Part shown: positions 1 to 16,557 of the stretch, in pieces | Position numbering within the stretch: the stretch's first letter is position 1 | Layout of the letters: every line of letters starts with the position of its first letter | Notes under the pieces: generated by a model | The model's database searches: none | What the model was told of the DNA's origin: nothing | Seen by the model: the letters and a program-made list of their open reading frames with translations, nothing else | Program-made: the position numbers and the translations under genes | DNA from: a virus | Taxonomy: Duplodnaviria > Heunggongvirae > Uroviricota > Caudoviricetes | Strand: one strand, 5' to 3' | IMG/VR virus record: IMGVR_UViG_2609460354_000003 | Length of the DNA stretch: 17,220 nt

Positions 1-634
1 GCTGGCAGTCTCTGATAACAGGCATACCACGTTTTACCGACTCTTCACGATGAATGGCGACACCACGTCCACGGCAATCCTTACAGGCGGTGGAAACCTC
101 ACCCTTTCCGCCACACTCCGGACAGGCAACTTTTACCACCTCCCTGACTTTTTTCCATTCTTCCCAGTAAGACGGATACACACCTTTCGTACACTTTGCC
201 CATACCGGCGGCTTACCATCCGGATACTGGACCTTGTTTGTAAAAACTACGCTTTCAATAAATTTTTCCCCATAGCAACAAGGGCACTGCTTTTTACTCG
301 CTGCGCTGCGGGCATAATCCTCAAAAGCGTACGAAGCCATAATGCGCATCACTACCGGTTTTATTTCTGCCGGGAGTTTTCTTAACGCCGCCACGCGATC
401 ACACCGACTGAGTGCATATTCTGTCAGCAATTCTGTTGCCCGCTCTCTGTCATTCATACTAATGCCCATTTTCCCAAGGAACGCAGAAAACCCCATCTCA
501 GCCCGATTCTGTGTCATGCCCTGCGCGGCCATCACATCAGTGATACTCAGCGCATCTTTCGACGTTGAGGCCGATGCATCAGTCAGGCCGGGGGATTTTG
601 GGGAGTAGTATTTCGGTAAATCTTCCAGTTTCAT
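1..634 (-). CDS. Putative late antiterminator Q-like protein; N-terminal part only, gene continues past window start
   Basis: Minus-strand ATG at 634..632 overlaps the rusA stop (ATGA). Hand translation gives MKLEDLPKYYSPKSPGLTDASAS... with two CxxCxGxG zinc motifs (CPECGGKG, CKDCRGRG) and no stop before position 1. Sits directly after rusA, as Q does in nin regions. Family assignment is from memory, not computed. Confidence 0.5.
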   Translation of the reverse strand, partial: MKLEDLPKYYSPKSPGLTDASASTSKDALSITDVMAAQGMTQNRAEMGFSAFLGKMGISMNDRERATELLTEYALSRCDRVAALRKLPAEIKPVVMRIMASYAFEDYARSAASKKQCPCCYGEKFIESVVFTNKVQYPDGKPPVWAKCTKGVYPSYWEEWKKVREVVKVACPECGGKGEVSTACKDCRGRGVAIHREESVKRGMPVIRDCQ

Positions 635-1005
635 TTTTTGACCTGCCCTTCAAGCATTATGGGGTAAATCTTCACCCCCAGACGTCCACCAGATACTGGC
701 TGACCACGAACGATATTGATTTCATCAAACTGCTCATCGTCCATTAACACTCCCGCATGCGTCAGCGCATCCAGCGGTGCTTTCAGGATATTGTCCAGGT
801 CGCGACGACGCTTATCCGGTGGCTCTGCAATCACCTTTATCGCCAGCCTTCCGGACAGGCTTAATTTCAGCCGCTGCTGGCGAACAATAAGCGCCACAGC
901 CCGGCGATAACGCTTTCCCTCCTCCGAGATAAAATATGTGCTGCCACGGCGTCGCCAGTAAGTGTTCACCGTCGGCGGGTAAGGTAAAACCAAATCTATG
1001 AGCAT
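631..1005 (-). CDS. rusA: RusA-family Holliday junction resolvase
   Basis: 124-aa ORF with LPYPPTVNTYW and RRRDLDNILKAPLDAL motifs typical of RusA. Confidence 0.88.
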   Translation of the reverse strand: MLIDLVLPYPPTVNTYWRRRGSTYFISEEGKRYRRAVALIVRQQRLKLSLSGRLAIKVIAEPPDKRRRDLDNILKAPLDALTHAGVLMDDEQFDEINIVRGQPVSGGRLGVKIYPIMLEGQVKK

Positions 1006-1017
1006 CAGTCACCTCTT

Positions 1018-2064
1018 TTACCCAAGCACGCCAGTTGCAAAGGCGTGATCAAGAAAACGAAAAATTAAATCAACCTGAGAACCATGCTTTTCTTCGAACG
1101 CCAGAGGATCCGCATGAAGCTCGTTGTGATGCTCCCGACACAGCGGTAGCGTGAAAATATCGTGAGATTTTGTCCCCATTCCGCCCTGACCATGACCAAT
1201 CAGGTGATGGGGATCGTCGGCTGGCTTACCACAACACGCACACGGCTGTGTCTTCACCCAGCGTGTGTATTTCTCGTTAACCCAGCGGCGACGTTTAGGT
1301 CGTTTCATGAAAGATTCCGGAGACTCAGGATCAACGGCAATGCTGACCACCGTCTCTTCCTGTGGCGGGGTTTGCTGGTGGGCGTGAGGCAGCGGCGCAA
1401 GATTTTTTGTGCGCTGCTTCAGTATGCTGGTGGCGGTCTGCTCTCCCGGTACGATGTCGCTTTCACGGTACATTGAGCGGATTTTTTCCGCACGCAACCC
1501 CAGCGAACGACGTAATACCGCTTCCGGTAGCGCGTCCGCCACCTGATTGCGGACCGCCCACCAGGATAATTCAGCCAGCGATAATTCCCGTTCCTGCGAG
1601 CCATTCATTGCATGGCGTATGACGTCAATCATCCATGCAGACAGGTTTTGGTGAGCAAGTTGCCCGAGTGATTCGGAGGTCTGGTCGCGCAGCTGGTTGT
1701 CGCAGTGCCAGCACAACACCATTGCGCCGGTACCATAACGGTGAATGACGGTTTCACTGTGGTGATAATCGCCGTGTGGCCACTGGCAGGATTTAACATG
1801 GCGCAGTAACCAGTCAGACAATGCGCCAGCGCCACCAGCAGCACGAATCACTCGTTCGTCGCTGAAAAATGGCAGTAATGATTTATCCTCCGCCAGCGGC
1901 TGGCGAACGGCAGGAACGACCCCGGACGGCAGATTACGCATGCTTTTCGGTTCCGGCTCCACCAGTACCCGGGTATTGTGGAATACCGGCATGGATTCAC
2001 GGCCCGGCTTAACGATCACCAGCCCGAGTTCCGGTACCAGAACAGGTCGAAGTAATACCCGCAC
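1018..2064 (-). CDS. DUF968-like phage protein with C-terminal HNH-like Cys/His motif (YdfU-like)
   Basis: 348-aa ORF with GTG start preceded by GGAGG. C-terminus CACCGKPADDPHHLIGHG...CREHHNELH resembles an HNH zinc motif. Family name from memory. Confidence 0.55.
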   Translation of the reverse strand: MRVLLRPVLVPELGLVIVKPGRESMPVFHNTRVLVEPEPKSMRNLPSGVVPAVRQPLAEDKSLLPFFSDERVIRAAGGAGALSDWLLRHVKSCQWPHGDYHHSETVIHRYGTGAMVLCWHCDNQLRDQTSESLGQLAHQNLSAWMIDVIRHAMNGSQERELSLAELSWWAVRNQVADALPEAVLRRSLGLRAEKIRSMYRESDIVPGEQTATSILKQRTKNLAPLPHAHQQTPPQEETVVSIAVDPESPESFMKRPKRRRWVNEKYTRWVKTQPCACCGKPADDPHHLIGHGQGGMGTKSHDIFTLPLCREHHNELHADPLAFEEKHGSQVDLIFRFLDHAFATGVLG

Positions 2065-2065
2065 G

Positions 2066-2449
2066 TTACCTCCAGATGCGTTGCTGGAATGTGCGGGACG
2101 GACGCCTGACGGAGATTATCCAGTGACGATAATCGAGGCTGAGGGCTTTCTTAATCTCGTATCCGTGTCTGCGGTAGCACTGAATTAGCCACTCGGCCTG
2201 TTCTTCAGTGCATGGGGGATGCTGGAACCAGTCAGATTTGAAAGTGCGGGAACGCCGCCCGTGCCTGCTGGCAGGGGCGGCAGAGTTATCCGAATTGTAA
2301 AATTTGGTATCGTGCGCCATCTGTTTTCTCTGCTGGCGCAGCAGGTGCCAGTTGTTCAGGCTGACGGATGGATTGTAAACCAGAACGACCAGAAAAAACA
2401 AAACCCGCCGAAGCGGGTTAAGTGCGGGTGCGTTGAGGATGCCTGACAC
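2066..2449 (-). CDS. Hypothetical small protein between DUF968 gene and hok (Rem-like by position); true start may be ATG at 2320 (84 aa)
   Basis: ORF-track frame. No convincing SD at 2449. Internal ATG at 2320 would give MAHDTKFYNSD... Basic protein, function unknown. Confidence 0.4.
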   Translation of the reverse strand: MSGILNAPALNPLRRVLFFLVVLVYNPSVSLNNWHLLRQQRKQMAHDTKFYNSDNSAAPASRHGRRSRTFKSDWFQHPPCTEEQAEWLIQCYRRHGYEIKKALSLDYRHWIISVRRPSRTFQQRIWR

Positions 2450-2487
2450 ATCAGCGGTGGCGAGGGATTTCTCCCCCGCCGGGTCTC

Positions 2488-2643
2488 TTACTCCTCAGGT
2501 TCGTAAGCTGTGAAGACAGCGACCTCCGTCTGGCCGGTTCGGATTCGTACCTCGCAGAGGTCTTTCCTCGTTACCAGTGCCGTCACTATGACGGTTAAAC
2601 AGATGACGATCAGGGCGATTAACATCGCCTTTTGCTGCTTCAT
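2488..2643 (-). CDS. hokD: Hok/Gef-family type I toxin (HokD/RelF-like), 51 aa
   Basis: Hand translation from ATG 2643: MKQQKAMLIALIVICLTVIVTALVTRKDLCEVRIRTGQTEVAVFTAYEPEE, stop TAA at 2488-2490. AAGGAGAAG SD upstream. Below the 60-aa cutoff of the ORF track. Matches HokD/RelF as recalled. Confidence 0.85.
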   Translation of the reverse strand: MKQQKAMLIALIVICLTVIVTALVTRKDLCEVRIRTGQTEVAVFTAYEPEE

Positions 2644-2901
2644 AGCCTGCTTCTCCTTGACCTTTCGGTCCGTAAGAGGCTAATCTCTATGTGTCGCATA
2701 GATATGGCCTCAGATTAATGTTAAGCGTCTTGCAGGACGCGTAATGTTAACTGGGGCTTTTCTCTATCTGCCTTTTGGTGTTCATGCCTGAGACAGATAG
2801 CCTCAAGCACCCGCAGTCATTCTACTTAACTAAGATTTCCCCGCAAACCGTTTTTGTCCGGCACAGTAAATATCCAACTAAACCAATGGCGTTCGCTGTA
2901 T

Positions 2902-3081
2902 TTACCGCCAGTATTCAATGCACATGACCGCCATGAACACCCCTAAAAAAAGGGCATTTATATATCCAAATATTAATATCAAAACATCAACTTTTTCCAT
3001 ATACCTTGCTGTGAAGATGATGGGCATACATGATACGAACAACCAGAACGCAACAAACAAAAACTGCAATGCGTTTTTCAT
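2902..3081 (-). CDS. Small predicted membrane protein (59 aa, two hydrophobic helices), unknown function
   Basis: Internal ATG at 3081 of the 72-aa ORF is preceded by AGGAGG. Product MKNALQFLFVAFWLFVSCMPIIF...LILIFGYINALFLGVFMAVMCIEYWR is strongly hydrophobic. Lies in an AT-rich island. Confidence 0.4.
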   Translation of the reverse strand: MKNALQFLFVAFWLFVSCMPIIFTARYMEKVDVLILIFGYINALFLGVFMAVMCIEYWR

Positions 3082-3310
3082 TATTCCTCCTACAATCAAT
3101 GTGCAATTACATTTAAACACACCTCAATTTGGCCGGACATATAAATATCTAAACCAGAAAAAATCACTTACATAGCGTTACAAACTCTTTAGTCTAAATA
3201 TTCATCGTAAAACATTCCCCATACTTATCAGCCCGTTCTGCGCCAGGTAGCTCATTGCCTTATCTGGGAATCTGTAATCAGGTTTCCGGATGCTGGTGGA
3301 TTTTCGCGTT

Positions 3311-3568
3311 TTAGTTGTTCATAAAAGTGCACAGCTTTAACCAGTTCTTCTGATGTAACCGGGACTGGCGGGGCAGTGAATAAGGCCTGAATTTCATAGT
3401 TCGGCCTGTCGTTACAATCCTCTTTTTTCGGTACATATTTCCAGTCACCAGACCACTACTTCCCCTGAAAGTCCGTAACGCCTTTTTTTTCACGTAGCGA
3501 TATCGCCATGCCACTGTTTTTGCTTCCCCCGCCGTTTCATGCCCTTCCTGATAATTAACCTCGCTCAT
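3311..3568 (-). CDS. Hypothetical basic protein (85 aa); N-terminus MSEVNYQ resembles Ead-like N-termini
   Basis: ATG 3568 overlaps the stop of the upstream small ORF (ATGA). Contains an A8 homopolymer (3483-3490), but neither a +1 nor a -1 shift there gives a longer frame. Confidence 0.3.
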   Translation of the reverse strand: MSEVNYQEGHETAGEAKTVAWRYRYVKKKALRTFRGSSGLVTGNMYRKKRIVTTGRTMKFRPYSLPRQSRLHQKNWLKLCTFMNN

Positions 3569-3741
3569 TCATCGCCCCACTCATCACAATATGCTTCGAC
3601 CGGAGTTTTTCCTGCTTCATAATCATCACGCCATGCTTCAGCATCAGCAGCACTGCCACCACGTAACTCTGCATAGTCCATTAACAGTTCATGCCATGCT
3701 TCAAAACTGACGTTGTATTTAGTTGAACCAAAATCAGCCAT
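3565..3741 (-). CDS. Hypothetical small acidic protein (58 aa)
   Basis: Hand translation MADFGSTKYNVSFEAWHELLMDYAELRGGSAADAEAWRDDYEAGKTPVEAYCDEWGDE. Coupled to genes on both sides. Below ORF-track size cutoff. Confidence 0.3.
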   Translation of the reverse strand: MADFGSTKYNVSFEAWHELLMDYAELRGGSAADAEAWRDDYEAGKTPVEAYCDEWGDE

Positions 3742-3916
3742 TTTGCTCTTCCTCTTCGTCTTTTATTTCGTGATATGAGTAATTGCAGTAGTTAAAGAAA
3801 ATATCTTTTGCTTCGTCATGTATTTCATCAGGCGTCGCATCATCATCCACTTCGAATTCATCCTCGAAATCTCCACCGGCTATTCCCGTTTCAATAATTA
3901 TTTTAAACTTTCGCAT
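3734..3916 (-). CDS. Hypothetical small acidic protein (60 aa)
   Basis: ORF-track ORF, very acidic (DFEDEFEVDDD, KDEEEEQ). AGGAGG plus a GC hairpin lie upstream. Confidence 0.35.
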   Translation of the reverse strand: MRKFKIIIETGIAGGDFEDEFEVDDDATPDEIHDEAKDIFFNYCNYSYHEIKDEEEEQNG

Positions 3917-4009
3917 TTAACTACCGCCCTTTCGGGCGGCCTCCTGATGTTCTGATGGTGCAGAAATCCCTCCGGTTAAGGATTAAATTTTTAACAGAGC
4001 TAAATTTAA

Positions 4010-4366
4010 TTATTCAGTTCTGGATTTTGTCGCCCTGCGTATCCGCGCTTTCGCGTTACGCTCAATCTGAATTAGCTTTTCTATATTTTTTCGCCTTTCC
4101 CGCTCCTCCTGGCGCAAGTGCCTTACATCATCTGCCAGTCTGGTTTCTCTTTTCGCCACAGAGAGCATCCAGTCAAATGGTTCCACAACTGCACCGCAGA
4201 TTTTACAGCGGACCTGACGCTCTTTTTCGTCAACCCGGACAGAGGCGTGATGACAATATGGTCTTTCCGATGGCTCATAAAGAAAATTAACCTGATTACG
4301 AGGGTCATCCTCTTTTACCGGAAATAAAACGATATTGCTTAACTCATCCTCTGGTTTTATTTCCAT
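4010..4366 (-). CDS. Hypothetical protein with putative zinc ribbon and basic C-terminal helix (118 aa)
   Basis: Start moved to ATG 4366 (GGAGAGGAG SD) within ORF 4010..4423. Motif CHHASVRVDEKERQVRCKICG, then an Arg/Glu-rich tail. Confidence 0.45.
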   Translation of the reverse strand: MEIKPEDELSNIVLFPVKEDDPRNQVNFLYEPSERPYCHHASVRVDEKERQVRCKICGAVVEPFDWMLSVAKRETRLADDVRHLRQEERERRKNIEKLIQIERNAKARIRRATKSRTE

Positions 4367-4487
4367 GCTCCTCTCCTTTGATGCGAATGCCAGCGGTAAT
4401 TGAAGCCTGATAGCTAATTTCACTCACAGTACCGCCTCCTGAAAATTTAATGAACAATTCAATACGTTCTTTGGTAATAGTGGTCAT
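4344..4487 (-). CDS. Small ORF (47 aa), likely recombination-derived chimera
   Basis: TAAGGAGTAACAC-ATG context. N-terminus MTTITKER resembles MITITKGR of gene 4763..5170. C-terminus ITAGIRIKGE matches the C-terminus of Ead-like gene 5684..6433. Confidence 0.3.
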   Translation of the reverse strand: MTTITKERIELFIKFSGGGTVSEISYQASITAGIRIKGEEHGNKTRG

Positions 4488-4497
4488 GTGTTACTCC

Positions 4498-4761
4498 TTA
4501 ACCCGCAGTGCTTTCAACTGATGAGGGGAACAAAATCTTTTCATCAAACCCTGCATTCATATCATGAACAGCAACACACCAATCCATCGACGAACGATTA
4601 TCAAGAGCCTCCATGATTTCATCCATGCGGCGCAGGTCATACAGGTAAATGCTTTTATCGCCAATGGTGTAAAAACCAATTTTTTTCGGTGATGGGCAGC
4701 GATCAAGAACGTCCTGTAATTCGTTCAACCATGCCCGTTCTTTTTTTGTTAAAGTTGCCAT
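4498..4761 (-). CDS. Hypothetical protein (87 aa)
   Basis: Start at ATG 4761 with AAAGGAGAG SD within ORF 4498..4821. No recognisable motif. Confidence 0.5.
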   Translation of the reverse strand: MATLTKKERAWLNELQDVLDRCPSPKKIGFYTIGDKSIYLYDLRRMDEIMEALDNRSSMDWCVAVHDMNAGFDEKILFPSSVESTAG

Positions 4762-4762
4762 A

Positions 4763-5170
4763 TCACTCTCCTTTCCCATGAAGCATAGCGGCGCGGCAGG
4801 CGTTCCATATTTCGGCAGCAATATCGCGCTCGCTATCGGTTAATTTGTACGTGGAAACATAGCCAGAGAGCATTTCTACGTTTTCCGGAGTTGCTTCTTC
4901 CGGCACTATCGGCGCTGGAGGGGCGGCAAATAGATATCCGCCAAAGTCAGGAAGCTCTCCAATGGCCTGTACGAACTTTTGTTTGCCTACGTCAACTCCT
5001 AATGGGTAATGAGCTATAATCTTTGCCACCGGCTCTGCTTCCAGCGATACCAGTGCAATTCGTGCCAGTTCTTCCGCTTCTTCTGCTGGCAGTACAACGT
5101 TGCTACCCGGTCCGTATGTTTCGCGCCACTGCTTGATTGTCAGCAGTCGCCCTTTGGTAATAGTGATCAT
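4763..5170 (-). CDS. Hypothetical protein (135 aa)
   Basis: ATG 5170 overlaps upstream stop (ATGA); AAGGAA SD. Confidence 0.55.
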   Translation of the reverse strand: MITITKGRLLTIKQWRETYGPGSNVVLPAEEAEELARIALVSLEAEPVAKIIAHYPLGVDVGKQKFVQAIGELPDFGGYLFAAPPAPIVPEEATPENVEMLSGYVSTYKLTDSERDIAAEIWNACRAAMLHGKGE

Positions 5171-5682
5171 GCCGCGTTTCCTTCTTTCTTATTAACAATC
5201 ACACCGTCATATATTTCATTAAGGTGCCCTCTCAACTCCATGCGCCTTAATGCAGATAACATGTAATCGCATTCAACCTGCTTATTCCCAGTAAATGGCT
5301 TATCGTCAGGATTACCCCAACAGCAATTACCCCTGGGCCATCCATGTACTTTCCGTACTCTTCCGTTAACAACGTGAAGTAATCCCCAGCCGGGAGGTAA
5401 ATCCTCAACTGAAATAATTTCCGGCTCACTAATAAAGAATCGCCAGTCGCCCATGCCAAGTGAGGGATTTTTACGGAAACGCTTTTTTCTATCTGCCAAC
5501 AAGTCAGCACGAGAACACTTCGCCTCTATCAGGCATGATGCTGAATTTCTGAATCCCATAGCATCTGGCTGTTCTCCGGTACTGGTTACAGCAACAAAGC
5601 GGTCATGAAAGCAAACCTTGAACCCGTTGCGCTTAAGGAACTTGTACGCAATCTGACAGAGTTCGCGGTGTGTTAACGCCAT
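5167..5682 (-). CDS. Hypothetical protein with possible PD-(D/E)xK nuclease-like motif (171 aa)
   Basis: AGGAGAG SD, ATGA coupling. Motif ...DAMGF...CLIEAKCSRAD fits the D...ExK pattern; functional call is tentative. Confidence 0.5.
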   Translation of the reverse strand: MALTHRELCQIAYKFLKRNGFKVCFHDRFVAVTSTGEQPDAMGFRNSASCLIEAKCSRADLLADRKKRFRKNPSLGMGDWRFFISEPEIISVEDLPPGWGLLHVVNGRVRKVHGWPRGNCCWGNPDDKPFTGNKQVECDYMLSALRRMELRGHLNEIYDGVIVNKKEGNAA

Positions 5683-5683
5683 A

Positions 5684-6433
5684 TCACTCTCCTTTGATGC
5701 GAATGCCAGCGGCGCGGATTGCAGCGATGACTTCAGAAACTTTGTATGCCATTACCGTTTGGTAATCATCGTGAAAATCTGTTCGATGAAGCATGCTGCT
5801 ACGTTCCGGGAGCGATATTTCCCGAGCATCCAGTTCCTTAACGCGTTCCTCCAGTTCGTAGACCCTGCATTGTTCTCTATCATCAATCAGATATAACCCA
5901 AGACATTCGCTTTCTACCCAACCGCCAAAATCATGATCGTAACGCTCACATGAAAACTCACCGTCACCGTCCTTTGTTGGAATGGTGTAACTATCTAATG
6001 GGCCACCATATGTCGGCACATTCCCCAATGTTGGATGCTCAATCCACATGAAAAATGCACGTCCGGTTATTGGGCAAATATCTGGCCGCCATTGGTTACG
6101 AACAGCCTTGGTTTCGGATAATTCTTCAGCGTGTTGTTTTACTTCCTCAAGCTCAACTCTCAGCTTCCCTACCGTTAGCGCAATATCCTCGTTCTCCTGG
6201 TCGCGGCGTTTGATGTATTGCTGGTTCCTTTCCCGTTCATCCAGTAGTGCCAGCACGGTTTCTGGTCCGGTCAGAAATTTGAAGGCATTGAGCGCATCAA
6301 TATCCACACCGTAATCTTTAAGTTCCTGTTCACTTAACAAATCATCATCAGTTGGCAACATTAACAGGCGTTCCATTGCTGGAATTGCACGTTCTGCTGC
6401 CTCACGCAGTGCCTGGTAATTAATTTCGCTCAC
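5684..6433 (-). CDS. Ead/Ea22-like early-region protein (249 aa)
   Basis: N-terminus MSEINYQALREAAERA, acidic coiled-coil middle, position in early-left b-region. Family assigned from memory. Confidence 0.6.
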   Translation of the reverse strand: MSEINYQALREAAERAIPAMERLLMLPTDDDLLSEQELKDYGVDIDALNAFKFLTGPETVLALLDERERNQQYIKRRDQENEDIALTVGKLRVELEEVKQHAEELSETKAVRNQWRPDICPITGRAFFMWIEHPTLGNVPTYGGPLDSYTIPTKDGDGEFSCERYDHDFGGWVESECLGLYLIDDREQCRVYELEERVKELDAREISLPERSSMLHRTDFHDDYQTVMAYKVSEVIAAIRAAGIRIKGE

Positions 6434-6873
6434 TGGTTGCCTCCTTTGCGAAGCTCTGCGGCTAAATACTCCAACGCCATTACCGGGACGCCAACAAGCA
6501 CAGTTCCTTTAAACTTCTTATGCAGGTGCTCGATAGCTGTATCCACGCCCTGCGCCCGTACTTCAGCCAGGAAAGCATCGGTGGCCGGAGTTTCAGGAAT
6601 CCGTCTCCTCATCAGTTCTATTGCATGATTGAACCCGAAATCTTCAGCAAGAGATACGTCATCCATATTGTCATTGTCGTCCTCAATATCCCGTGGTTCT
6701 GGAATTGCAGACTTTATTACCGCATTCTCCGCCGCCAGCGCCGCGCACTTGGCCTCAAGAGCGGCAACCACTTCCTGATGGTCTTTGTACTTAACGTATG
6801 AGCCGGAGATGTCATCACCTTCGGTGTTTAGCCATGCGTCATTGCAATTCACTGCGTAGGTTCTGATGCTCAT
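6430..6873 (-). CDS. Hypothetical early-region protein (147 aa from ATG 6873)
   Basis: ATG 6873 has GGGAGAG SD and ATGA coupling to upstream ORF. Acidic segment EDDNDNMDD. Confidence 0.5.
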   Translation of the reverse strand: MSIRTYAVNCNDAWLNTEGDDISGSYVKYKDHQEVVAALEAKCAALAAENAVIKSAIPEPRDIEDDNDNMDDVSLAEDFGFNHAIELMRRRIPETPATDAFLAEVRAQGVDTAIEHLHKKFKGTVLVGVPVMALEYLAAELRKGGNQ

Positions 6874-7055
6874 GTTGATGCTCTCCCGCCCCTGACAGAC
6901 GCCAGGCCAGTCAATAAAGTATCCGCACAATGCCTACCCTCAGACGTGCGCGCAGGATAAATGCCGTTATGACCCGGCAAAATATATGCTACCCATTCAT
7001 CTTGCGTTGCCTGTTCCGCCGCCTCACGCAGTGCCTGAGAGTTAATTTCGCTCAC
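6870..7055 (-). pseudogene. Ead-like N-terminal fragment (61-aa ORF), probable recombination remnant
   Basis: First 16 aa MSEINSQALREAAEQA parallel the N-terminus of 5684..6433. Its 5' DNA (7021-7055) is a near repeat of 6399-6433. The rest of the ORF has no protein-like character. Confidence 0.3.
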
Positions 7056-7273
7056 TTCGAACCTCTCTGTTTACTGATAAGTTCCAGATCCTCCTGGCAA
7101 CTTGCACAAGTCCGACAACCCTGAACGGCCAGGCGTCTTCGTTCATCTATCGGATCGCCACACTCACAACAATGAGTGGCAGATATAGCCTGGTGGTTCA
7201 GGCGGCGCATTTTTATTGCTGTATTGCGCTGTAATTCTTCGATTTCTGATGCTGAATCAATGATGTCTGCCAT
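7052..7273 (-). CDS. TraR/DksA-family C4 zinc-finger protein (73 aa)
   Basis: CCECGDPIDERRR...CRTCASC four-Cys motif in a short phage protein. Confidence 0.7.
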   Translation of the reverse strand: MADIIDSASEIEELQRNTAIKMRRLNHQAISATHCCECGDPIDERRRLAVQGCRTCASCQEDLELISKQRGSK

Positions 7274-7323
7274 CTTCCATTAATCCCTGAATTGTTGGTT
7301 AATACGCTTGAGGATGAATGCGA

Positions 7324-7349
7324 ACAATAAAAAAGGAGCCTGTAGCTCC
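7324..7349 (-). terminator. Rho-independent terminator-like hairpin within the early-left operon
   Basis: On the minus strand, GGAGC-tacag-GCTCC is followed by TTTTTTATTG, just after the stop of gene 7372..7587. Confidence 0.55.
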
Positions 7350-7371
7350 CTGATGATTTTGCTTTTCATGT

Positions 7372-7587
7372 TCACCGTTCCTTAAAGACGCCGTTTAACA
7401 TGCCGATCGCCAGGCTTAAATGAGTCGGTGTGAATCCCATCAGCGTTACCGTTTCGCGGTGCTTCTTTAGTACGCTACGGCAAATGTCATCGACGTTTTT
7501 ATCCGGAAACTGCTGTCTGGCTTTTTTGATTTCAGAATTAGCCTGACGGGCAATGCTGCGAAGGGCGTTTTCCTGCTGAGGTGTCAT
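7372..7587 (-). CDS. Hypothetical protein (71 aa from ATG 7587; ORF extends to 7686)
   Basis: ORF-track frame. Internal ATG 7587 avoids overlap with the methylase gene. No known motif. Confidence 0.4.
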   Translation of the reverse strand: MTPQQENALRSIARQANSEIKKARQQFPDKNVDDICRSVLKKHRETVTLMGFTPTHLSLAIGMLNGVFKER

Positions 7588-7663
7588 TGAACAAGTCCCA
7601 TGTCGGCAAGCATAAGCACACAGAATATGAAGCCCGCTGCCAGAAAAATGCATTCCGTGGTTG

Positions 7664-8221
7664 TCATGCAGCCTCCCGACGGGCAAGAATCCTTGAGCCG
7701 AACGCCATCAACTCTCCACGATCAACGGTCGTAAAGTGGCAGTGTGTACGGGGGTATGGGTGCCAGATAATGAGCATCGAGCCTTTATTATTTCCACTGA
7801 CGGGTTTCTCAGTGAGTGGGTTAATAAATGCCAGTCGTCCTGCCGTGATGAATCTGACCTCACTGGCGGTTTGTATCGCTTCATGAAACCATCCGACAGA
7901 TGTGTCAGCAGGCAATAACATTACACATCCCACACTACTGAATTTGTTTTCAGTGGCTGCCTTTTTCACAAAAGGGGAAATATTGCTGTATGGTGGATTC
8001 AACCAGACATAACCAGAGGCATATCCCATTGCTTCAGGCCATGAAGTGGTTAATGTGTTCTGCTCCTGTGAGATAAAAAGCCGACATAGTCGGTTTTTTT
8101 CGCTGGCGGCAGCATCAAGTTGAAAAACGAACTCTGCATTAAGCGCAGCAAAAATCTCTGGTGGTGTGCGCCAGCTGTCGCGATGTTCGGCAGGAGTATT
8201 GCTTCCGGTGAAATCAGTCAT
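7664..8221 (-). CDS. Phage DNA N6-adenine methyltransferase (Dam-like, orphan)
   Basis: WRTPPEIF...FQLDAAAS and NPPY motifs. No restriction endonuclease candidate nearby. Confidence 0.85.
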   Translation of the reverse strand: MTDFTGSNTPAEHRDSWRTPPEIFAALNAEFVFQLDAAASEKNRLCRLFISQEQNTLTTSWPEAMGYASGYVWLNPPYSNISPFVKKAATENKFSSVGCVMLLPADTSVGWFHEAIQTASEVRFITAGRLAFINPLTEKPVSGNNKGSMLIIWHPYPRTHCHFTTVDRGELMAFGSRILARREAA

Positions 8222-8375
8222 ACAGCCCCCGTTTATTATTTATCGCCTCAGCCAGCCGCTGTGCTTTCAGTGGATTTCTGATAACAGAAAGGCCGGGAAA
8301 TACCCAGCCTCGCTTTGTAACGGAGTAGATGAAAGTGATCGCGCCTACCCGGATATTATCGTGAGGATGCGTCAT
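8214..8375 (-). CDS. Small hypothetical ORF (53 aa) coupled between exo and the methyltransferase
   Basis: ATG 8375 overlaps exo stop (ATGA); its TGA overlaps the methylase ATG. Translation [53 protein letters not shown]. Below ORF-track cutoff. Confidence 0.3.
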
Positions 8376-9052
8376 CGCCATTGCTCCCCAAATACAAAAC
8401 CAATTTCAGCCAGTGCCACGTCCATTTTTTCGATGAACTCCGGCACCATCTCGTCAAAATTCGCCATGTACTTTTCATCCCGCTCAACCACGACATAATG
8501 CAGGCCTTCACGCTTCATACGCGGGTCATAGTTGGCAAAGTACCAGGCATCTTTTCGCGTCACCCACATGCTGTACTGCACCTGGGCCATGTAAGCCGAC
8601 TTTATGGCCTCGAAACCACCGAGCCGGAACTTCATGAAATCCCGGGAGGTAAACGGGCATTTCAGTTCAAGGCCATTGCCGTCACTGCATAAACCATCGG
8701 GAGAGCAGGCGGTGCGCATACTTTCGTCGCGATAGATGATCGGGGATTCAATAACATTTACGCCGGAAGTGAACTCAAACAGGGTTCTGGCGTCGTTCTC
8801 GTACTGTTTTCCCCAGGCCAGTGCTTTAGCGTTAACTTCCGGAGCCACACCGGTGCAAACCTCGGCAAGCAGGGTGTGGAAGTAGGACATTTTCATGTCA
8901 GGCCACTTCTTTCCTGAGCGGGGCTTTGCTATCACGTTGTGAACTTCTGAAGCGGTGATGACGCCGAGCCGTAATTTGTGCCACGCATCATCCCCCTGTT
9001 CGACAGCTCTCACGTCGATCCCGGTACGCTGCAGGATAATGTCCGGTGTCAT
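8372..9052 (-). CDS. exo: Lambda-type exonuclease (Red alpha)
   Basis: 226 aa beginning [37 protein letters not shown], matching lambda Exo as recalled. Sits directly downstream of bet. Confidence 0.93.
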
Positions 9053-9834
9053 GCTGCCACCTTCTGCTCAGTGGCTTTTTGTTTCAGGAATCCAAGAGCT
9101 TTCACTGCTTCGGCCTGTGTCAGTTCTGACGATGCACGAATGTCGCGGCGAAATATCTGGGAACAGAGCGGCAATAAGTCGTCATCCCATGTTTTATCCA
9201 GGGCGATCAGCAGAGTGTTAATCTCCTGCATGGTTTCATCGTTAACCGGAGTGATGTCGCGTTCCGGCTGACGTTCTGCAGTGTATGCGGTATTTTCGAC
9301 AATGCGCTCGGCTTCATCCTTGTCATAGATACCCGCAAATCCGAAGGCCAGACGGGCACACTGAATCATGGCTTTATGCCGTAACATCCGTTTGGGATGC
9401 GACTGCCACGGCCCCGTAATTTCTCTGCCTTCGCGGGTTTTGAATGGTTCGCGGCGGCATTCATCCATCCACTCGGTAACGCAGATCGGATGATTGCGGT
9501 CCTTGCGGTAAATCCGGCATGTACAGGATTCATTGTCCTGCTCAAAGTCCATGCCATCAAACTGCTGGTTTTCATTGATGATGCGGGACCAGCCATCAAC
9601 GCCCACCACCGGAACGATGCCATTCTGCTTATCAGGAAAGGCGTAAATTTCTTTCGTCCATGGATTAAGGCCGTACTGGTTGGCAACGATCAGTAATGCG
9701 ATGAACTGCGCATCGCTGGCATCACCTTTAAATGCTGTCTGGCGAAGAGTGGTGATCAGTTCCTGTGGGTCGACAGAATCCATGCCGACACGTTCAGCCA
9801 GCTTCCCAGCCAGCGTTGCGAGTGCTGTACTCAT
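9049..9834 (-). CDS. bet: Lambda-type Red beta single-strand annealing protein
   Basis: 261 aa beginning [38 protein letters not shown], near-identical to lambda Bet as recalled. Confidence 0.95.
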
Positions 9835-9839
9835 CCGTT

Positions 9840-10136
9840 TTATACCTCTGAATCAATATCAACCTGATGGTGAGCAATGGTTTCAACCATGTACCGGATG
9901 TGTTCTGCCATGCGCTCCTGAAACTCAACATCGTCATCAAACGCACGGGTAATGGCTTTTTTGCTGGCCCCGTGGCGTTGCAAATGATCGATGCATAGCG
10001 ATTCAAACAGGTGCTGGGGCAGGCCTTTTTCCATGTCGTCTGCCAGTTCTGCCTCTTTCTCTTCACGGGCGATCTGCTGGTAGTGACGCGCCCAGCTCTG
10101 AGCCTCAAGACGATCCTGAATGTAATAAGCGTTCAT
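9840..10136 (-). CDS. gam: Gam RecBCD inhibitor (short GamS-like form)
   Basis: 98 aa [60 protein letters not shown]... AGGAGG SD. In-frame upstream sequence has stops, so no GamL extension. Confidence 0.93.
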
Positions 10137-10211
10137 GGCTGACCTCCTGAAAATGGCTGTGAAAATATCGCCCGCGAAATGCCAGGCTGATTAGGAAAAC
10201 AGGAAAGGGGA

Positions 10212-10622
10212 TTAGTGATTTAGGCCGTTGCCGCGTCCGTCGAGAAAAACTTCCACGAGCAAATCACGGGTATAAGTGCGCTCGATGCCGCGATGCAGAT
10301 ATAGCCGTCCGCGTAAATTAGCTGATGCAGTCCAGGTACCATCTTTGTGTTTGACCAGCATTCCTGGCATGACCGCACCGCGATTAACGGTCTGCGTTCC
10401 GTAATGTTGATGAACCATAAAAACTCCTGCCCGTAAGCTGGGCTGCTGAACATATATAGACTTCTGCGCGTATTCAGGCGGTGGATGGCCGCCGGTTGTC
10501 ATAACTAAGCCGCCTCGTTGAAGCGACTGAGGTATGAAGTGTTGAGTTGATTTCAGCTGGTCACACCGACGTTCACGCGTCCGCTTCACCCCTCGCACTC
10601 CCCGGAGCCTGCTGAAATTCAA
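10212..10622 (-). CDS. Hypothetical protein in the N position (first gene after PL); possible N-like antiterminator if started at upstream TTG/GTG, otherwise 96 aa from ATG 10502
   Basis: With the TTG start the N-terminus is Arg-rich ([15 protein letters not shown]), reminiscent of N arginine-rich motifs. First ATG is at 10502 with a GAGG SD. No clear boxA/boxB seen. Confidence 0.35.
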
Positions 10623-10689
10623 GCTGCGGATCTAAGCGGTCATCGCAACGGTGAATCAGGTGGTTGCCGTATCGTTGTGTTGTTGCGAC

Positions 10690-10745
10690 ATGGTGATAAT
10701 AGCTATTGCTATTGATGATATCAATACTTATTGCTATTGCTAGAT
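10690..10745 (-). promoter_or_regulatory. OL/PL-like region: leftward promoter with repressor operator repeats
   Basis: Minus strand -35 TTGATA (plus 10717-10722), 17-nt spacer, -10 TATTAT (plus 10694-10699). Repeated TTGCTATTG-type motifs at about 10699-10712 and 10727-10741 also occur in OR. Confidence 0.5.
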
Positions 10746-10870
10746 GTGTTTTGATATTAAATATTTGATAGCAAAAAGAATTAATTTTGTGACTTGCATC
10801 GCATAGCGATAACTGAAGCGGGGTTGTGGTGGTTTTTTGAACGGTGTGTGCGATGAGGGGAGGGCAAAAG

Positions 10871-10892
10871 AAAACCCGGCACGGTGGCCGGG
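10871..10892 (-). terminator. Rho-independent terminator ending the cI-side accessory locus
   Basis: Minus strand CCCGGC-cac...-GCCGGG hairpin followed by TTTTCTTTTG, right after the stop of the 283-aa gene. Confidence 0.6.
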
Positions 10893-10899
10893 TCTGAAC

Positions 10900-11751
10900 T
10901 TACTGAATTTTCCTGAAAATCACAAGAGGAGTCATTCCGTATGCGGTGCTACTGCGGCCTGCTAATTCTTTTATCCCAGAAAGCATTTCTGTTATGCCAT
11001 CTTTCAAAGGGTTTGACGGGAACACAGACATATCGAAAAGTTCTTGGTCATATTCAGGAAGGGCATCGATAAAACCAAGTACGTACCATTCGCCTGGAAT
11101 ACTCCCACCATATTTTAGAACCATATCGTCTGGATTAATGGTGAGGTAATCACGATTAATAGTCATCCAAATGGTTTGACCAAAATCATTAATAAAATCA
11201 ACCTGCAATGTGTTCGGGACAATATTAAGTACTTCTTTCATCATGCCAAAAGTGACACCGGGCGAGACGGGGATTTCGTCAATACTATCATTCGTTTTTT
11301 TTGCTTTTGGCGGTAGCTTGGAGCGTTCTGCCTTTAGCATTTTTGCTACAAACGGGACGCTTTTTTGAAACATGGAAATATCAAAAATACGAACATGGCC
11401 TTTAGATAAAACAGTACTCCCAAGTCTTTCACCATTAAGTTCTGTTTTTATTAGATCATTTTCAGAAAGTTTATCTAAGAGGTTAATAGGAAGCGTCCAT
11501 GAAGCATCATAGCTTTTTTCATGGGTGTAATTGATAGTTTCCTCAACACCAAGTTTTGACTTAATGATTTTAATGTCAAAGCCGGCATCACTTACTGATT
11601 TGTCAACTTCAGCTGTTACCTGTCTGATAGATGTTATTACACCAGGCCCATGCATCTGTGCCAAGAGCGATGATGCCCGCTTGTTATCAACATATAGAAA
11701 ATCATACAATGAATCGGTGGTTTGTGATTCTTGCGCCGCGGATACGGTCAT
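10900..11751 (-). CDS. Unknown 283-aa protein in the cI-downstream (rex-like) position
   Basis: Complete ORF with AAGGAAGAG SD 7 nt before ATG 11751. AT-rich relative to neighbours. Same strand as cI, followed by a terminator. No motif recognised. Confidence 0.7.
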   Translation of the reverse strand: MTVSAAQESQTTDSLYDFLYVDNKRASSLLAQMHGPGVITSIRQVTAEVDKSVSDAGFDIKIIKSKLGVEETINYTHEKSYDASWTLPINLLDKLSENDLIKTELNGERLGSTVLSKGHVRIFDISMFQKSVPFVAKMLKAERSKLPPKAKKTNDSIDEIPVSPGVTFGMMKEVLNIVPNTLQVDFINDFGQTIWMTINRDYLTINPDDMVLKYGGSIPGEWYVLGFIDALPEYDQELFDMSVFPSNPLKDGITEMLSGIKELAGRSSTAYGMTPLVIFRKIQ

Positions 11752-12057
11752 TCTTTATCTCTTCCTTCTTTTCGGCAATTTCATTTTGTTTTTTCTTTAT
11801 TTCGTCAATAACTTCCTGAACCTCTGCATCAGTGGCCCTGGGGGGTTTAGATTCAATAATTTTTAATAATTTGCGAATCATGACGAAATCTCTTGAAAAT
11901 ATGCCTTGGTTAAATTATGCACTCACACGGAGGCGATATCAACAGGGCATAAAATGCAATCATAAAAAACACATAAAATTCAAAGCATTAATAAATTAAA
12001 GGGCTGAGGTTTAACTCGTCTGTAATGGCCTTCTAAGGCTAAAATATGAGCATTAAA

Positions 12058-12750
12058 TCAACCATGCTTCCTGTACGTCTGCGGCATGCTCCCGATGACT
12101 TTCCCGAAAATGAATACCCGGTTCATCTCGTCTTTCTCGATCGGGTCCCACGGTGAGTAACTCTTGTTATCAGAGATAACGAGCAGCTTATCCTTCATCA
12201 TTTGCAGGCGCTTTACATGGGCTGTGTCGTCATACAGAAACGCATAGATACCATCACCGTCGAAAGATTTAACCGTGATATCAACGAACAGCAGATCACC
12301 TGGTTCGATCGTTCCTGACATGCTGTCACCGCGTACGTTAATAATGCGGATATTTTCTGCCTTCCTACCATCGAACATGTGACGAGCATCGTCAAACGAG
12401 TACTCAACCGAACGTAGAACTTCTACAAACTCACGGTTGATGACTCCCGGCCCGGCACTGACTTCTATATCAAGAACGTCAATTTTGAAGTATTTGGAAT
12501 GGCTGACAGCAGGCTTCCCTGATTGTTGACCGTCATTTCTCATCGGGCCTATGCCTGATGAGAGCCATTCTGTTCGAACACCCAATGCATTAGCTATTTC
12601 AACAATTTTTGTTGAGCCGCGCGCGTTGCCGCTTGTCAGTCTCCAGATTGTGGGTTGAGCTACGCCAGACGCCTTTGCAAGAGCGCCTTGAGACATTCCA
12701 GATTGTTCCATCGCTAGGTTTAAGCGATCAGCAAGAGTTTCTTTTTTCAT
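12058..12750 (-). CDS. cI: CI-type prophage repressor (N-terminal HTH, C-terminal S24 LexA-like autopeptidase)
   Basis: HTH segment SQGALAKASGVAQPTIWRL; S24 features GDSMSGTIEPGD and a downstream Lys (HVKRL). Start set at ATG 12750 because the TTG at 12786 falls in the -35 of the predicted promoter. Confidence 0.88.
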   Translation of the reverse strand: MKKETLADRLNLAMEQSGMSQGALAKASGVAQPTIWRLTSGNARGSTKIVEIANALGVRTEWLSSGIGPMRNDGQQSGKPAVSHSKYFKIDVLDIEVSAGPGVINREFVEVLRSVEYSFDDARHMFDGRKAENIRIINVRGDSMSGTIEPGDLLFVDITVKSFDGDGIYAFLYDDTAHVKRLQMMKDKLLVISDNKSYSPWDPIEKDEMNRVFIFGKVIGSMPQTYRKHG

Positions 12751-12860
12751 AAGTTTTAATTTATACGCTTGCGTATTGATGGTCAAAACACGTTTTGCTA
12801 TTGCTTGGATTAATACGCATTGCTATTATTCATTCATTGCAATACCAATAGGAATTGATA
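12751..12860. promoter_or_regulatory. OR-like divergent promoter/operator region (PRM-like leftward, PR-like rightward)
   Basis: Minus strand TTGACC (12781-12786), 15-16 nt spacer, TATAAA (12760-12765), ending 8-9 nt before the cI ATG, implying a leaderless or near-leaderless cI mRNA. Plus strand TTGCTT (12801-12806), 17 nt, TATTAT (12824-12829). Three ATTGCTATT/ATTGCAAT operator-like motifs between 12796 and 12845. Confidence 0.6.
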
Positions 12861-13088
12861 ATGACAAATCAAACCATTCAACTCGCAATCAGTATTACAG
12901 GTAGTCAAAAACGACTGGCAGATCTATGCGGTGTAGCCCAACCCACAGTTTGGCGTTGGCTACACGGTGGCGGAATTGATGCCCGCTATGTAATGAAAAT
13001 TGTCTCAGCCACTGGTGGAAAGATTAAACCAGCAGATATTCGTCCCGACCTCGCACCATTGTTTAACGCGAGTAATTCTGCCGCCTAA
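12861..13088 (+). CDS. cro: Cro-like HTH regulator (75 aa)
   Basis: ATG 12861 with AGGAA SD. HTH segment QKRLADLCGVAQPTVWRWL. Divergent from cI across the operator region. Confidence 0.7.
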   Translation: MTNQTIQLAISITGSQKRLADLCGVAQPTVWRWLHGGGIDARYVMKIVSATGGKIKPADIRPDLAPLFNASNSAA

Positions 13089-13112
13089 ACTGCGGCGTTA
13101 ACTGATAAGGCA

Positions 13113-13658
13113 ATGACTATGCAACCACTTACATACCAACAGACTAGCGGATTTAGCCCGACTGCGGTGATAAATCGTTCTCAAACAAAACAGGTGCCAG
13201 GCCACGAAAAAATCCGTGATGCCGTCCGCGCCTGGTCGGCTGCAGATAATCAGGATGTTGTTGCCGCACTCATTGTGAATGAGTATCGGGAGCAGGGCGG
13301 CGGCACCATCGATTTCCCTGATGATGTCAGCCGTGCACGCCAGAAGCTGTTCCGCTTCCTCGATAACAAATTCGATTCTGAAAAATACCGAAATAACGTG
13401 CGTGAACTGACCCCGGCAATTCTGGCGGTACTACCGCTGGAATATCGCGGTTACCTGGTTGAGCAGGATAGCTTCATGACTCGGTTGGCTGAAATGGAAA
13501 AGGAACTCAGTGAGGCAAAACAGGCTGTCATTCTCAACGCACCACGCCACCAGAAACTGAAGGAGATGAGTGAAGGCATTGTGTCGATGTTTCGTGTGGA
13601 CCCGGACCTGGCTGGTCCATTGATGGCGATGGTCACCACCATGCTGGGGGCAATATGA
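13113..13658 (+). CDS. CII-position regulatory protein (YdaT/CII-like, putative)
   Basis: 181-aa ORF between cro and O; start may instead be ATG 13119 (better SD spacing). Family assignment from memory, not computed. Confidence 0.45.
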   Translation: MTMQPLTYQQTSGFSPTAVINRSQTKQVPGHEKIRDAVRAWSAADNQDVVAALIVNEYREQGGGTIDFPDDVSRARQKLFRFLDNKFDSEKYRNNVRELTPAILAVLPLEYRGYLVEQDSFMTRLAEMEKELSEAKQAVILNAPRHQKLKEMSEGIVSMFRVDPDLAGPLMAMVTTMLGAI

Positions 13659-13744
13659 CAGGTTCAGAAATGGCGAAAGCCGGTCTGCGCGAACAGAACC
13701 GACTTTCAGGTGCAAATCGTAACACACTCATTGCGGGAGGAATT

Positions 13745-14674: not shown

Positions 14675-15372
14675 AAAACATCGCCGCACAGATGATTAAC
14701 TTTGACCGTGAGCAGATGCGCCGGATCGCCAACAACATGCCGGAACAGTACGAAGAAAAGCCGCAGGTACAGCAGATAGCGCAGATCATCAACGGTGTGT
14801 TCAGCCAGTTACTGGCAACTTTCCCGGCGAGCCTGGCTAACCGTGACCAGAACGAACTGAACGAAATCCGCCGCCAGTGGGTTCTGGCTTTTCGGGAAAA
14901 CGGGATCACCACAATGGAACAGGTTAACGCAGGAATGCGCGTAGCCCGTCGACAGAATCGACCATTTCTGCCATCACCTGGGCAGTTTGTTGCATGGTGC
15001 CGGGAAGAAGCATCCGTTATCGCCGGACTGCCAAACGTCAGCGAGCTGGTTGATATGGTTTACGAGTATTGCCGGAAGCGTGGCCTGTATCCGGATGCAG
15101 AGTCTTATCCGTGGAAATCAAACGCGCACTACTGGCTGGTTACCAACCTGTACCAGAACATGCGGGCCAATGCGCTGACTGACGCGGAATTACGGCGTAA
15201 GGCTGCCGATGAGCTGTCCTGTATGACCGCACGAATTAACCGTGGTGAGGCTATACCTGAACCAGTAAAACAACTTCCTGTCATGGGCGGTAGACCTCTA
15301 AATCGTGCACAGGCTCTGGCGAAGATCGCAGAAATCAAAGCGAAGTTCGGACTGAAAGGAGCAAGTGTATGA
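14671..15372 (+). CDS. P: Replication protein P (DnaB helicase loader)
   Basis: 233 aa MKNIAAQMINFDREQMRRIANNMPEQYEEKPQVQQIAQIINGVFSQLLATFPASLANRDQNE..., near-identical to lambda P as recalled. ATGA overlap with O stop. Confidence 0.95.
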   Translation: MKNIAAQMINFDREQMRRIANNMPEQYEEKPQVQQIAQIINGVFSQLLATFPASLANRDQNELNEIRRQWVLAFRENGITTMEQVNAGMRVARRQNRPFLPSPGQFVAWCREEASVIAGLPNVSELVDMVYEYCRKRGLYPDAESYPWKSNAHYWLVTNLYQNMRANALTDAELRRKAADELSCMTARINRGEAIPEPVKQLPVMGGRPLNRAQALAKIAEIKAKFGLKGASV

Positions 15373-15662: not shown

Positions 15663-15742
15663 GCATAACTTATGGATTATATGGAAAACTGGTAATTATG
15701 CTCTTTTCTTATGAAAAATTAAGAGAAGTTTTCGCTGGCGTT

Positions 15743-16458: not shown

Positions 16459-16557
16459 TGGAACCCCCAAAAAAATGAATGGTGCCATATTGCCACATCA
16501 ATTCAATGGTGGCATTATGGCCTCATGGTGTCATTGTGGCCTCATGAGGTTATGTCA
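16459..16557. promoter_or_regulatory. Divergent promoter/operator region between Mnt-like and Arc-like genes
   Basis: Inverted repeat TGCCACAT...ATGGTGGCA (about 16491-16515), direct repeats ATTATGGCCTCATGG / ATTGTGGCCTCATGA, and the 10-bp palindrome CCTCATGAGG. Confidence 0.5.

Follow-up and report, generated by a model that had tools for sequence, protein, structure and literature searches.

Genes for a Q antiterminator, RusA, DUF968, Rem and Hok-Sok occupy the minus strand at one end of a 17,220-bp stretch of DNA (the window), where they run in the same direction as gam-bet-exo; Pfam, Rfam and the gene calls bore out this co-orientation, which had been noticed in an earlier reading of the sequence alone. 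The question that this locus raises is whether such an arrangement marks an unusual element. The window and contig JNPG01000006.1 of E. coli 2-156-04_S3_C3 (assembly GCA_000703745.1) are one and the same sequence, assembled from 100-bp HiSeq reads with MaSuRCA 2.3.2 (PMC6222053). Its left end lies inside Q (codon 211) and its right end inside a Bro-N gene, and because the window is the entire contig, there is no flanking sequence to inspect. Comparison with relatives revealed that the contig is composed of two ordinary prophage arms, arm 1 at nt 1-7025 and arm 2 at nt 7026-17220. Our verdict is that the window represents ordinary lambdoid mosaicism and not a new kind of element; its gene order goes back to a single recombination event or to a mis-join in the assembly. 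The window is indeed free of an integrase, as had been claimed: the precomputed Pfam assignments for every called gene across the 17,220 bases included no integrase or recombinase domain. In addition, none of the contig's called genes has a Pfam excisionase domain, and Rfam found no tRNA or other RNA family besides sok in the window.

Arm 1 carries, in order from the joint, Ea22 genes of 61, 147 and 249 aa, small genes, DUF7167, hok/sok, rem, DUF968, rusA and Q. Its features to the left of the 147/249-aa Ea22 genes, apart from those of the AT-rich stretch, were as follows.

1-634 (ORF 2-634), minus strand: Q antiterminator truncated at the contig end, with the first 211 of its 273 aa present (PF03589, E=3e-30)
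631-1005, minus strand: RusA Holliday-junction resolvase (PF05866, E=2e-17)
1018-2064, minus strand: DUF968 (YdfU-like), 348 aa (PF06147, E=1e-76)
2066-2320, minus strand: Rem-like ORF, 84 aa (gene call; annotated as rem in phage records)
2488-2643, minus strand: Hok toxin (PF01848, E=1e-23)
3565-4487, minus strand: small genes specific to the PR context, comprising a 58-aa gene, DUF7167 (3734-3916), 118/137 aa (4010-4423) and what remains of an Ea22 C terminus, 47 aa long (gene calls)
4498-5682, minus strand: genes of 87 aa, 135 aa (DUF551-N-like) and 171 aa (gene calls)

The leftmost ORF thus belongs to the Q family, as had been assumed, and the full 273-aa gene is present in the relatives L001 and L046. 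Judged by its gene content and order, arm 1 comes from the rightward replication-to-Q operon of a lambdoid prophage of the Qin/potC-ompW type, of which it forms the distal part. Intact Qin-type relatives at potB/potC or ompW (PPompW prophages, vB_EcoS-640R1, mEp460-like) possess the same genes in the same order and on the same strand, and the map of prophage Qin in K-12 MG1655, hokD-rem-ydfU-quuQ, is one that we take to be the matching PR-distal module. The arm-1 module showed 88-94% identity to phage records and 99-99.97% identity to prophages in O104:H4 and GCA_053944095.1; compared with the standard PR arm of L046, arm 1 had 2 mismatches in 7,025 nt (99.97% identity). The DNA of 4498-5682 was 100% identical to L005, L006 and L007, and the small genes of 3565-4487 were always downstream of replication genes in the relatives. 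All 15 related loci carried the module behind replication genes with int/xis at the far side, and the genes preceding it were O-like, DUF977 and MTase genes, whereas the window has TraR-Dam-exo-bet-gam in this position. In other words, the module of Qin-type relatives follows replication genes belonging to its own phage, while that of the window follows the Red operon of another phage type via an Ea22 block. The exact DUF968 allele was found in 11 contigs and occupied a PL context in the window's contig only.

Arm 2 (7026-17220) is identified by its genes as the early region of a lambda-like prophage, with cI, kilR, gam, bet, exo, Dam and TraR running leftward and cro/ydaS, ydaT, O, P and ren running rightward.

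7052-7273, minus strand: TraR/DksA zinc-finger gene, the last gene of PL type (PF01258)
7664-10418, minus strand: early-left Red operon, comprising Dam (7664-8221), DUF1317, Exo (8372-9052), Bet (9049-9834), Gam (9840-10136) and KilR (10212-10418) (Pfam)
12058-12750, minus strand: immunity region, cI-like S24 repressor (Pfam/gene calls)
Plus strand: YdaS/cro-like gene (12861-13088), YdaT (13119-13658), O (13655-14674), P (14671-15372) and ren (15369-15662) (Pfam/gene calls)

Here kil-gam-bet-exo is divergent from cro and adjoins the cI-type S24 repressor (PF06064, PF03837, PF09588, PF00717). The arm was 97-99% identical to H1-H20 and H78, the Red operon being 97-98% identical to canonical prophages, and to the right of ren it enters a Bro-N/moron region, as in relatives that then carry a nin-Q-lysis arm of their own. 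An early-left operon of lambda type ends in xis-int next to attL; that of the window does not. The exact TraR protein occurred in 22,012 collection blocks, and 8 of the 10 contexts listed continued to an excisionase and/or integrase, the contexts L037 and L043 ending in an IS or other genes. In a second set of arm-2 relatives, TraR was followed, sometimes after DUF4222/Ea22, by xis and/or int in 9 of the 10 contexts listed, with L020 lacking an integrase.

The two arms meet inside a gene, at the following features.

5684-6873, minus strand: two Ea22-like genes, encoding 249 aa (5684-6433) and 147 aa (6430-6873) (PF13935)
6870-7055, minus strand: hybrid 61-aa ead/Ea22-like ORF containing the joint, the exact protein occurring in the window's contig only among 153 billion gene positions
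7024-7026, unstranded: crossover, with the PR-type arm ending at 7025 and the PL-type arm beginning at 7026, placed by comparison with relatives of both arms

PR-type relatives were identical through 7025 and first differed at 7026, 7039, 7043, 7047 and 7049, while relatives with the TraR context were identical from 7018/7024 rightwards and diverged leftwards. The joint therefore lies approximately 10 codons into the 61-aa ORF, and the closest available parents share 2-8 nt of identity at the crossover (7018/7024-7025), inside a head that is approximately 80% identical. The division into 61 and 147 aa was considered as a frameshift that might betray damage at the joint, and this idea was rejected, since the same split is found, as the normal condition, in L005, L008, L009, L010, L046 and L052.

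Ea22 paralogues have a conserved 5' head in common and are always oriented with transcription. Blocks with identical DNA occur in two places, namely the int-proximal end of leftward operons and the region behind the replication genes of rightward operons. The exact 249-aa protein was found in the PR contexts L005-L008 and L010 and in the PL context L009, and L052 contained the 61/147 pair in a PL context; both PL contexts place these same genes (61/147, with or without 249) in an int-proximal position. At the DNA level, L009 showed 0 mismatches over 5678-7020 and L052 showed 1 mismatch over 6394-7025. As in the window, Ea22-like genes (PF13935) of lambda/P22-type early-left operons lie downstream of exo/TraR or RecT/DUF2737 in the PL orientation. 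There the genes that come next are DUF551, xis and int, whereas those of the window are hok and Q. A switch of path inside Ea22 thus swaps the xis-int end for the hok-to-Q end, and the co-orientation without an integrase follows automatically. These results uphold two parts of the sequence-only reading, that the window is a composite of two lambdoid prophage types and that the int-xis end of the right-hand arm was replaced, and they move the boundary, which had been placed at the AT-rich gap (2700-3310). The Red operon does not run straight into that gap, as had been described, but is separated from it by Ea22-like genes and small genes that occupy approximately 4 kb (3311-7055). Nothing supports the suggestion of tandem or nested prophages, because the window has no att, int or tRNA between units and the joint sits within an ORF.

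The PL-in/PR-out arrangement of the window was present in 0 of 5,426 complete E. coli genomes and absent from 50,697 phage records. The 53-nt joint was absent from IMG/VR, JGI metagenomes and GTDB representatives. The 25 contigs examined for the 249-aa Ea22 protein represented six distinct contexts, none of which was such a hybrid. Furthermore, no clonal relative was found: the exact P protein was encoded on the window's contig alone and the exact O protein on one Logan contig (SRR1186774).

That run comprises the strain's own reads, and its Logan contig (L031) was 100% identical to the window over 6996-15471. L031 stops at 6996, which is 7026 minus 30, or 30 nt past the crossover. A repeat within the window was excluded as the cause of this break, since no 30/31-mer is repeated in the window. 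The stop at 6996 and the lack of an internal repeat together imply that the reads contained a second copy, identical up to 7025 and differing at 7026, and this behaviour of the de Bruijn graph points to the presence of the joint sequence at least twice in the genome. The copy that the break requires is the unrecombined head type seen in L005, L007, L046 and L052. Logan k-mers spanning 6996-7056, up to the break of L031 at 6996, join bases of PR type (6996-7023) to bases of PL type (7026-7049). The hybrid is thus independently confirmed over its first 30 nt, which indicates that at least the joint between TraR and the 61-aa Ea22 gene is biological. A search for further Logan contigs of SRR1186774 using the rare arm-1 proteins (DUF968 and the 84-aa Rem) found none on record.

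The first explanation, to which we give about an even chance, is that the long-range order in the window is an assembly artefact, a concern already raised in the sequence-only reading, produced by a mis-join through a repeat, and that the hybrid head between TraR and the 61-aa Ea22 gene alone is real, as an ordinary mosaic joint. The strain would hold two standard prophages with an identical Ea22 stretch in common, one with MTase, the Ea22 block, hok and Q, and a second, hypothetical one with TraR, the hybrid Ea22 head, Ea22 genes and xis-int; the MaSuRCA contig would have entered the repeat from the TraR side and exited on the Q side. Because Ea22 blocks are identical in both contexts, two such co-resident prophages would give a repeat of at least 0.6-1.3 kb, which is beyond 100-bp reads. 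The window resembles repeat-induced chimeric contigs in that its joint lies in a sequence with at least two copies, an independent assembly stops there, and the arrangement is found in one contig; it differs from a plain chimeric contig in that the first 30 nt of its hybrid were recovered independently. Three observations cast doubt on a mis-join. First, MaSuRCA normally breaks at repeats that it cannot resolve; both ends of this contig are examples, and so are the sister-assembly contigs that start 35 nt before DUF968. Second, the DUF968 and rem alleles of arm 1 are present in only one contig of this assembly. Third, the second prophage has to be postulated, since searches of complete E. coli genomes found no phage in which TraR is followed by the 61/147-aa Ea22 genes with a PL-type exit. 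In any case, the locus serves as a warning that an odd order of prophage genes in a short-read draft should be interpreted only once it has been confirmed at read level or by long reads.

The other serious explanation, which we hold more tentatively, at somewhat below an even chance, is that the contig is correct and records an in vivo exchange between the leftward-operon Ea22 of a lambda-like prophage and the post-replication Ea22 of a co-resident prophage of the Qin/potC-ompW type. Such an exchange might be mediated by RecA or by the element's own Red proteins (Bet/Exo), which tolerate short, diverged homology. In the chromosome, it would produce an inversion between prophages of inverted orientation and a deletion or duplication between prophages in direct orientation. 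The resulting composite would have two divergent Q/late arms around one immunity region, with leftward transcripts entering hok, rusA and Q, and, lacking int/xis, it would be unable to excise. Several lines of evidence favour this scenario: the contig itself shows both arms joined, each near-identical to a different parental type, and the crossover maps to sequence that they have in common; the Logan k-mers show that the hybrid head exists in the reads; Bet, Exo and Gam are encoded 1-3 kb from the joint; and an assembler usually stops at an unresolved repeat rather than crossing it. The uniqueness of the joint across databases would also be expected of a dead-end, lineage-private event. Rad52-like phage recombinases are known to drive mosaicism of lambda prophages across diverged homology (De Paepe et al. 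2014, PMC3945230), and prophage-flanked inversions are described as common in E. coli O157 in a passage of PMC8991562 that cites Iguchi et al. 2006. The homology-driven mosaicism and inter-prophage rearrangement of E. coli (PMC3945230; PMC8991562, for O157:H7) likewise involve lambdoid exchange at short conserved sequence with a Rad52-like recombinase, here Bet, on site. However, documented mosaics swap equivalent positions and keep the canonical layout, whereas the partners in the window come from non-equivalent operons and their union is known from this contig only, no complete genome and none of the six Ea22 contexts containing a hybrid of these modules. The few nucleotides of identity at the crossover, within so diverged a head, also argue against an exchange between the closest available parents. 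Moreover, a simple reciprocal exchange leaves no extra copy, yet the Logan break requires one, so that one must assume either a third gene of the 61-aa Ea22 type or a parent, so far unobserved, that is identical over at least 31 nt.

The biological weight of the locus is therefore small, at best one more lineage-private case of lambdoid mosaicism. A real composite could not excise and would let Q be read from PL, a matter of modest interest for prophage domestication. The ead/Ea22 paralogues, near-identical in both early operons, do represent portable homology able to swap non-equivalent arms and lock a prophage in place.

It is very improbable that the window derives from a single viable temperate phage of non-canonical layout, in which the early-left operon is followed by Q and the genes for lysis and morphogenesis, and late genes are driven from PL, although this would constitute a lambdoid genome architecture so far undescribed. 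The genes of both arms are all intact ORFs, the contig ending inside Q and the Bro-N gene, and this is compatible with such a phage. However, arm 2 continues as in relatives that have their own nin-Q-lysis arm, the layout is absent from the phage records and IMG/VR searched above, and arm 1 differs from a standard prophage arm by so few nucleotides that there was no time for an independent lifestyle.

Least credible of all is the proposal that the AT-rich gap (2700-3310) is a deletion or inversion scar or the border of tandem or nested prophages, with everything from 3311 rightwards being early-left: its low GC (down to 0.39-0.41 at 2751-3500) and few ORFs invited that reading, but it contains the sok RNA and hok leader, the block around it runs unbroken into both flanks in 259 complete E. 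coli genomes and also in induced phages, and positions 1-7025 are collinear with single standard prophages, with no att, int or tRNA. Two features account for the stretch.

2641-2812, minus strand: sok antitoxin RNA/hok-mok leader, at the start of the AT-rich stretch (Rfam RF01794, 106.7 bits; gathering score, 59)
2902-3081, minus strand: 59-aa ORF within the AT-rich stretch (gene calls)

The stretch is therefore made up of the hok/mok/sok control region and a 59-aa ORF, and is not a junction. A scan of 2300-3700 for promoters and terminators yielded no more than expected by chance, with one terminator-like hairpin at 2419-2402, between hok and rem. The 59-aa ORF was identical in L001, L003 and L005-L008.

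Gene calling on the contig, together with Pfam and Rfam searches, bore out the genes that a sequence-only reading had named (Q, RusA, DUF968 and Hok), and the leftmost ORF proved to belong to the Q family (PF03589). The features of the left part are as follows:

2-634, minus strand: Q antiterminator, first 211 of 273 aa (Pfam PF03589)
631-1005, minus strand: RusA (Pfam)
1018-2064, minus strand: DUF968 (Pfam)
2066-2320, minus strand: Rem-like ORF
2488-2643, minus strand: Hok (Pfam)
2641-2812, minus strand: complete sok RNA/hok leader (Rfam RF01794, 106.7 bits)
5684-7055, minus strand: three ead/Ea22-like genes (249, 147 and 61 aa)
6870-7055, minus strand: 61-aa Ea22 ORF holding the joint

Small minus-strand genes lie to the right of sok and precede the Ea22 block. 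To the right of the Ea22 genes, the minus strand encodes TraR, Dam, DUF1317, Exo, Bet, Gam and KilR, cargo with DUF6414 and an S24 repressor of the cI type. Beyond them, the plus strand encodes a ydaS/cro-like gene, ydaT, O, P and ren; an AT-rich moron follows, and the window ends within a Bro-N gene. No called gene of the contig carries an integrase, recombinase or excisionase domain. Thus, the earlier observation that the Q/rusA/DUF968/hok module is co-oriented with the Red operon, with no integrase in the window, was correct. A terminator-like hairpin was also seen between hok and rem (2419-2402).

The same reading had taken an AT-rich gap right of hok for a junction or scar, and this we reject. 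Window 1-5200 is unbroken in 260 records from 259 complete E. coli genomes and is also contiguous in induced phages, and the low-GC stretch consists of the hok/mok/sok control region and a 59-aa ORF; the sok RNA/hok leader overlaps its start. In all 15 relatives examined for left-arm order (L001, L003, L005-L008, L010, L021-L023, L025, L045-L047 and L050), a series on one strand runs from the replication genes through DUF977/MTase, Ea22 and small genes, DUF7167, hok/sok, rem, DUF968, rusA and Q to the lysis and terminase genes, with dicB-exoVIII-xis-int beyond the repressor on the other side. L046 matches best, with 2 differences across 7,025 positions. The left block, collinear with standard prophages, is thus the normal distal part of a rightward operon as found in prophages of the Qin/potC-ompW type.

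The joint was mapped base by base against PR-type (rightward, replication-to-Q) relatives and canonical early-left contexts. Five PR-type relatives (L005, L006, L007, L046 and L050) match the window at 100% identity over 4401-7025 and first differ at 7026, 7039, 7043, 7047 and 7049. Early-left relatives with the same 73-aa TraR (L036, L033 and L038-L040) are identical rightwards of 7018/7024 and diverge leftwards at 7023, 7017, 7014 and beyond. These limits place the joint at 7024-7026, inside the 61-aa Ea22 ORF after about ten codons and 4 kb from the boundary proposed earlier. Past TraR, right-hand relatives lead into DUF4222 or an Ea22-like gene and then into xis-int, at thrW, icd, argU, ybhC or mlrA; an excisionase and/or integrase follows in 9 of 10 contexts of one set and 8 of 10 of another. 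A second small mosaic patch was noted at 7018-7131: 7024-7081 shows full identity to the TraR 3' end and head of the N96/L036 type, whereas from 7078 to the right another prophage lineage, in which DUF4222 follows a 72-aa TraR, matches best (99.2%).

Ea22 paralogues are present in both early operons, and their 5' head is conserved: between window 6400-6434 and 7024-7056, 31 of 34 positions match. The exact 249-aa Ea22 protein lies behind the replication genes in L005-L008 and L010, and also at the int-proximal end of a RecT-type leftward operon adjoining torS in L009, where the DNA shows 0 mismatches over 5678-7020; Ea22 DNA is nearly fully identical across contexts. In the same PL (early-left) position, L052 carries a 61/147 Ea22 pair with an unrecombined head. 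Because this block is common to both operon types, a path switch within it swaps the int arm for the Q arm, yielding exactly the observed pattern. In addition, a 26-nt exact direct repeat (4371-4396 and 5687-5712), located at the 3' ends of a 47-aa Ea22 remnant and Ea22-249, brackets a block of 171-, 135- and 87-aa genes and resembles the mark left when a module was inserted at an older date through recombination between Ea22 3' ends.

The window spans all 17,220 bp of JNPG01000006.1 (GCA_000703745.1, E. coli 2-156-04_S3_C3), so flanking sequence is absent from this assembly, which was built with MaSuRCA 2.3.2 from 100-bp HiSeq reads of an isolate from Tanzanian children (PMC6222053). An independent Logan assembly of the strain's reads (SRR1186774) contains an 8,476-bp contig 100% identical to window 6996-15471. 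Since this contig combines PR-type bases (6996-7023) with PL-type bases (7026-7049), the hybrid Ea22 head is real. The contig stops at 6996, 30 nt left of 7026, and the window contains no repeated 30/31-mer; for a k=31 graph, this means that the reads include another copy, identical up to 7025 and different at 7026, namely an unrecombined L046/L052-type head. Left of 6996, the sequence is supported by the MaSuRCA contig alone. An exact-protein search found the hybrid 61-aa protein in no other contig of the collection, the 53-nt joint was not found in IMG/VR, JGI metagenomes or GTDB representatives, and the arrangement was not found in 5,426 complete E. coli genomes or 50,697 phage records. The other Logan break falls inside ren at 15471, indicating another ren-like copy in the genome. 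In a sister assembly, GCA_000711375.1, the identical DUF968 allele occurs on three contigs (L026, L029 and L030), two of which begin exactly 35 nt upstream of it, showing that this pipeline duplicates repeats at contig ends.

The arrangement arose either as an ordinary mosaic joint between two well-known prophage arm types or as a repeat-path artefact linking them. We give an even chance to a mis-join, in which an Ea22 stretch of at least 0.6-1.3 kb would be identical in two standard prophages and the assembler would leave this repeat by the wrong path. Such sharing accounts for the extra Ea22 head copy without further assumption; the mis-join also demands an otherwise unseen TraR-to-Ea22-61 leftward arm and an error by MaSuRCA, which usually breaks at repeats. 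Only somewhat less likely is that non-equivalent Ea22 copies recombined in vivo and left a non-excisable composite (inversion, deletion or duplication): events broadly like this have been documented (PMC3945230; PMC8991562) and Bet/Exo are encoded on site, but the crossover must fall within 2-8 nt of identity relative to known parents, and a further Ea22-61-type copy is needed to explain the Logan break. A viable phage in which Q is wired to PL is highly improbable, because arm 2 (7026-17220) runs rightwards like relatives possessing their own Q arm.

Other features were also observed. The repressor-kilR slot just downstream of cI (10419-12057; GC 0.37-0.41) holds DUF6414 (10900-11751) and a 59-aa ORF; its cargo varies by relative (HipA_2+DUF3037, SecB+MqsA, ASCH, DUF6932 or an HD-domain protein), and it is a hypervariable moron or defence slot. 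After ren, an AT-rich minus-strand moron (15743-17220; GC 0.33-0.38) carries a 132-aa ORF and an Arc/RHH-like 115-aa ORF, with the plus-strand Bro-N gene to its right cut by the contig end. Defective prophages at ybhC in O157-type chromosomes (L035, L041, L042 and L044) and in L034 possess a NinE|exo (or bet|NinG) joint from which the whole immunity and replication core is gone; such a joint is a genuine deletion scar, as envisaged by the sequence-only reading, but in canonical arm orientation.
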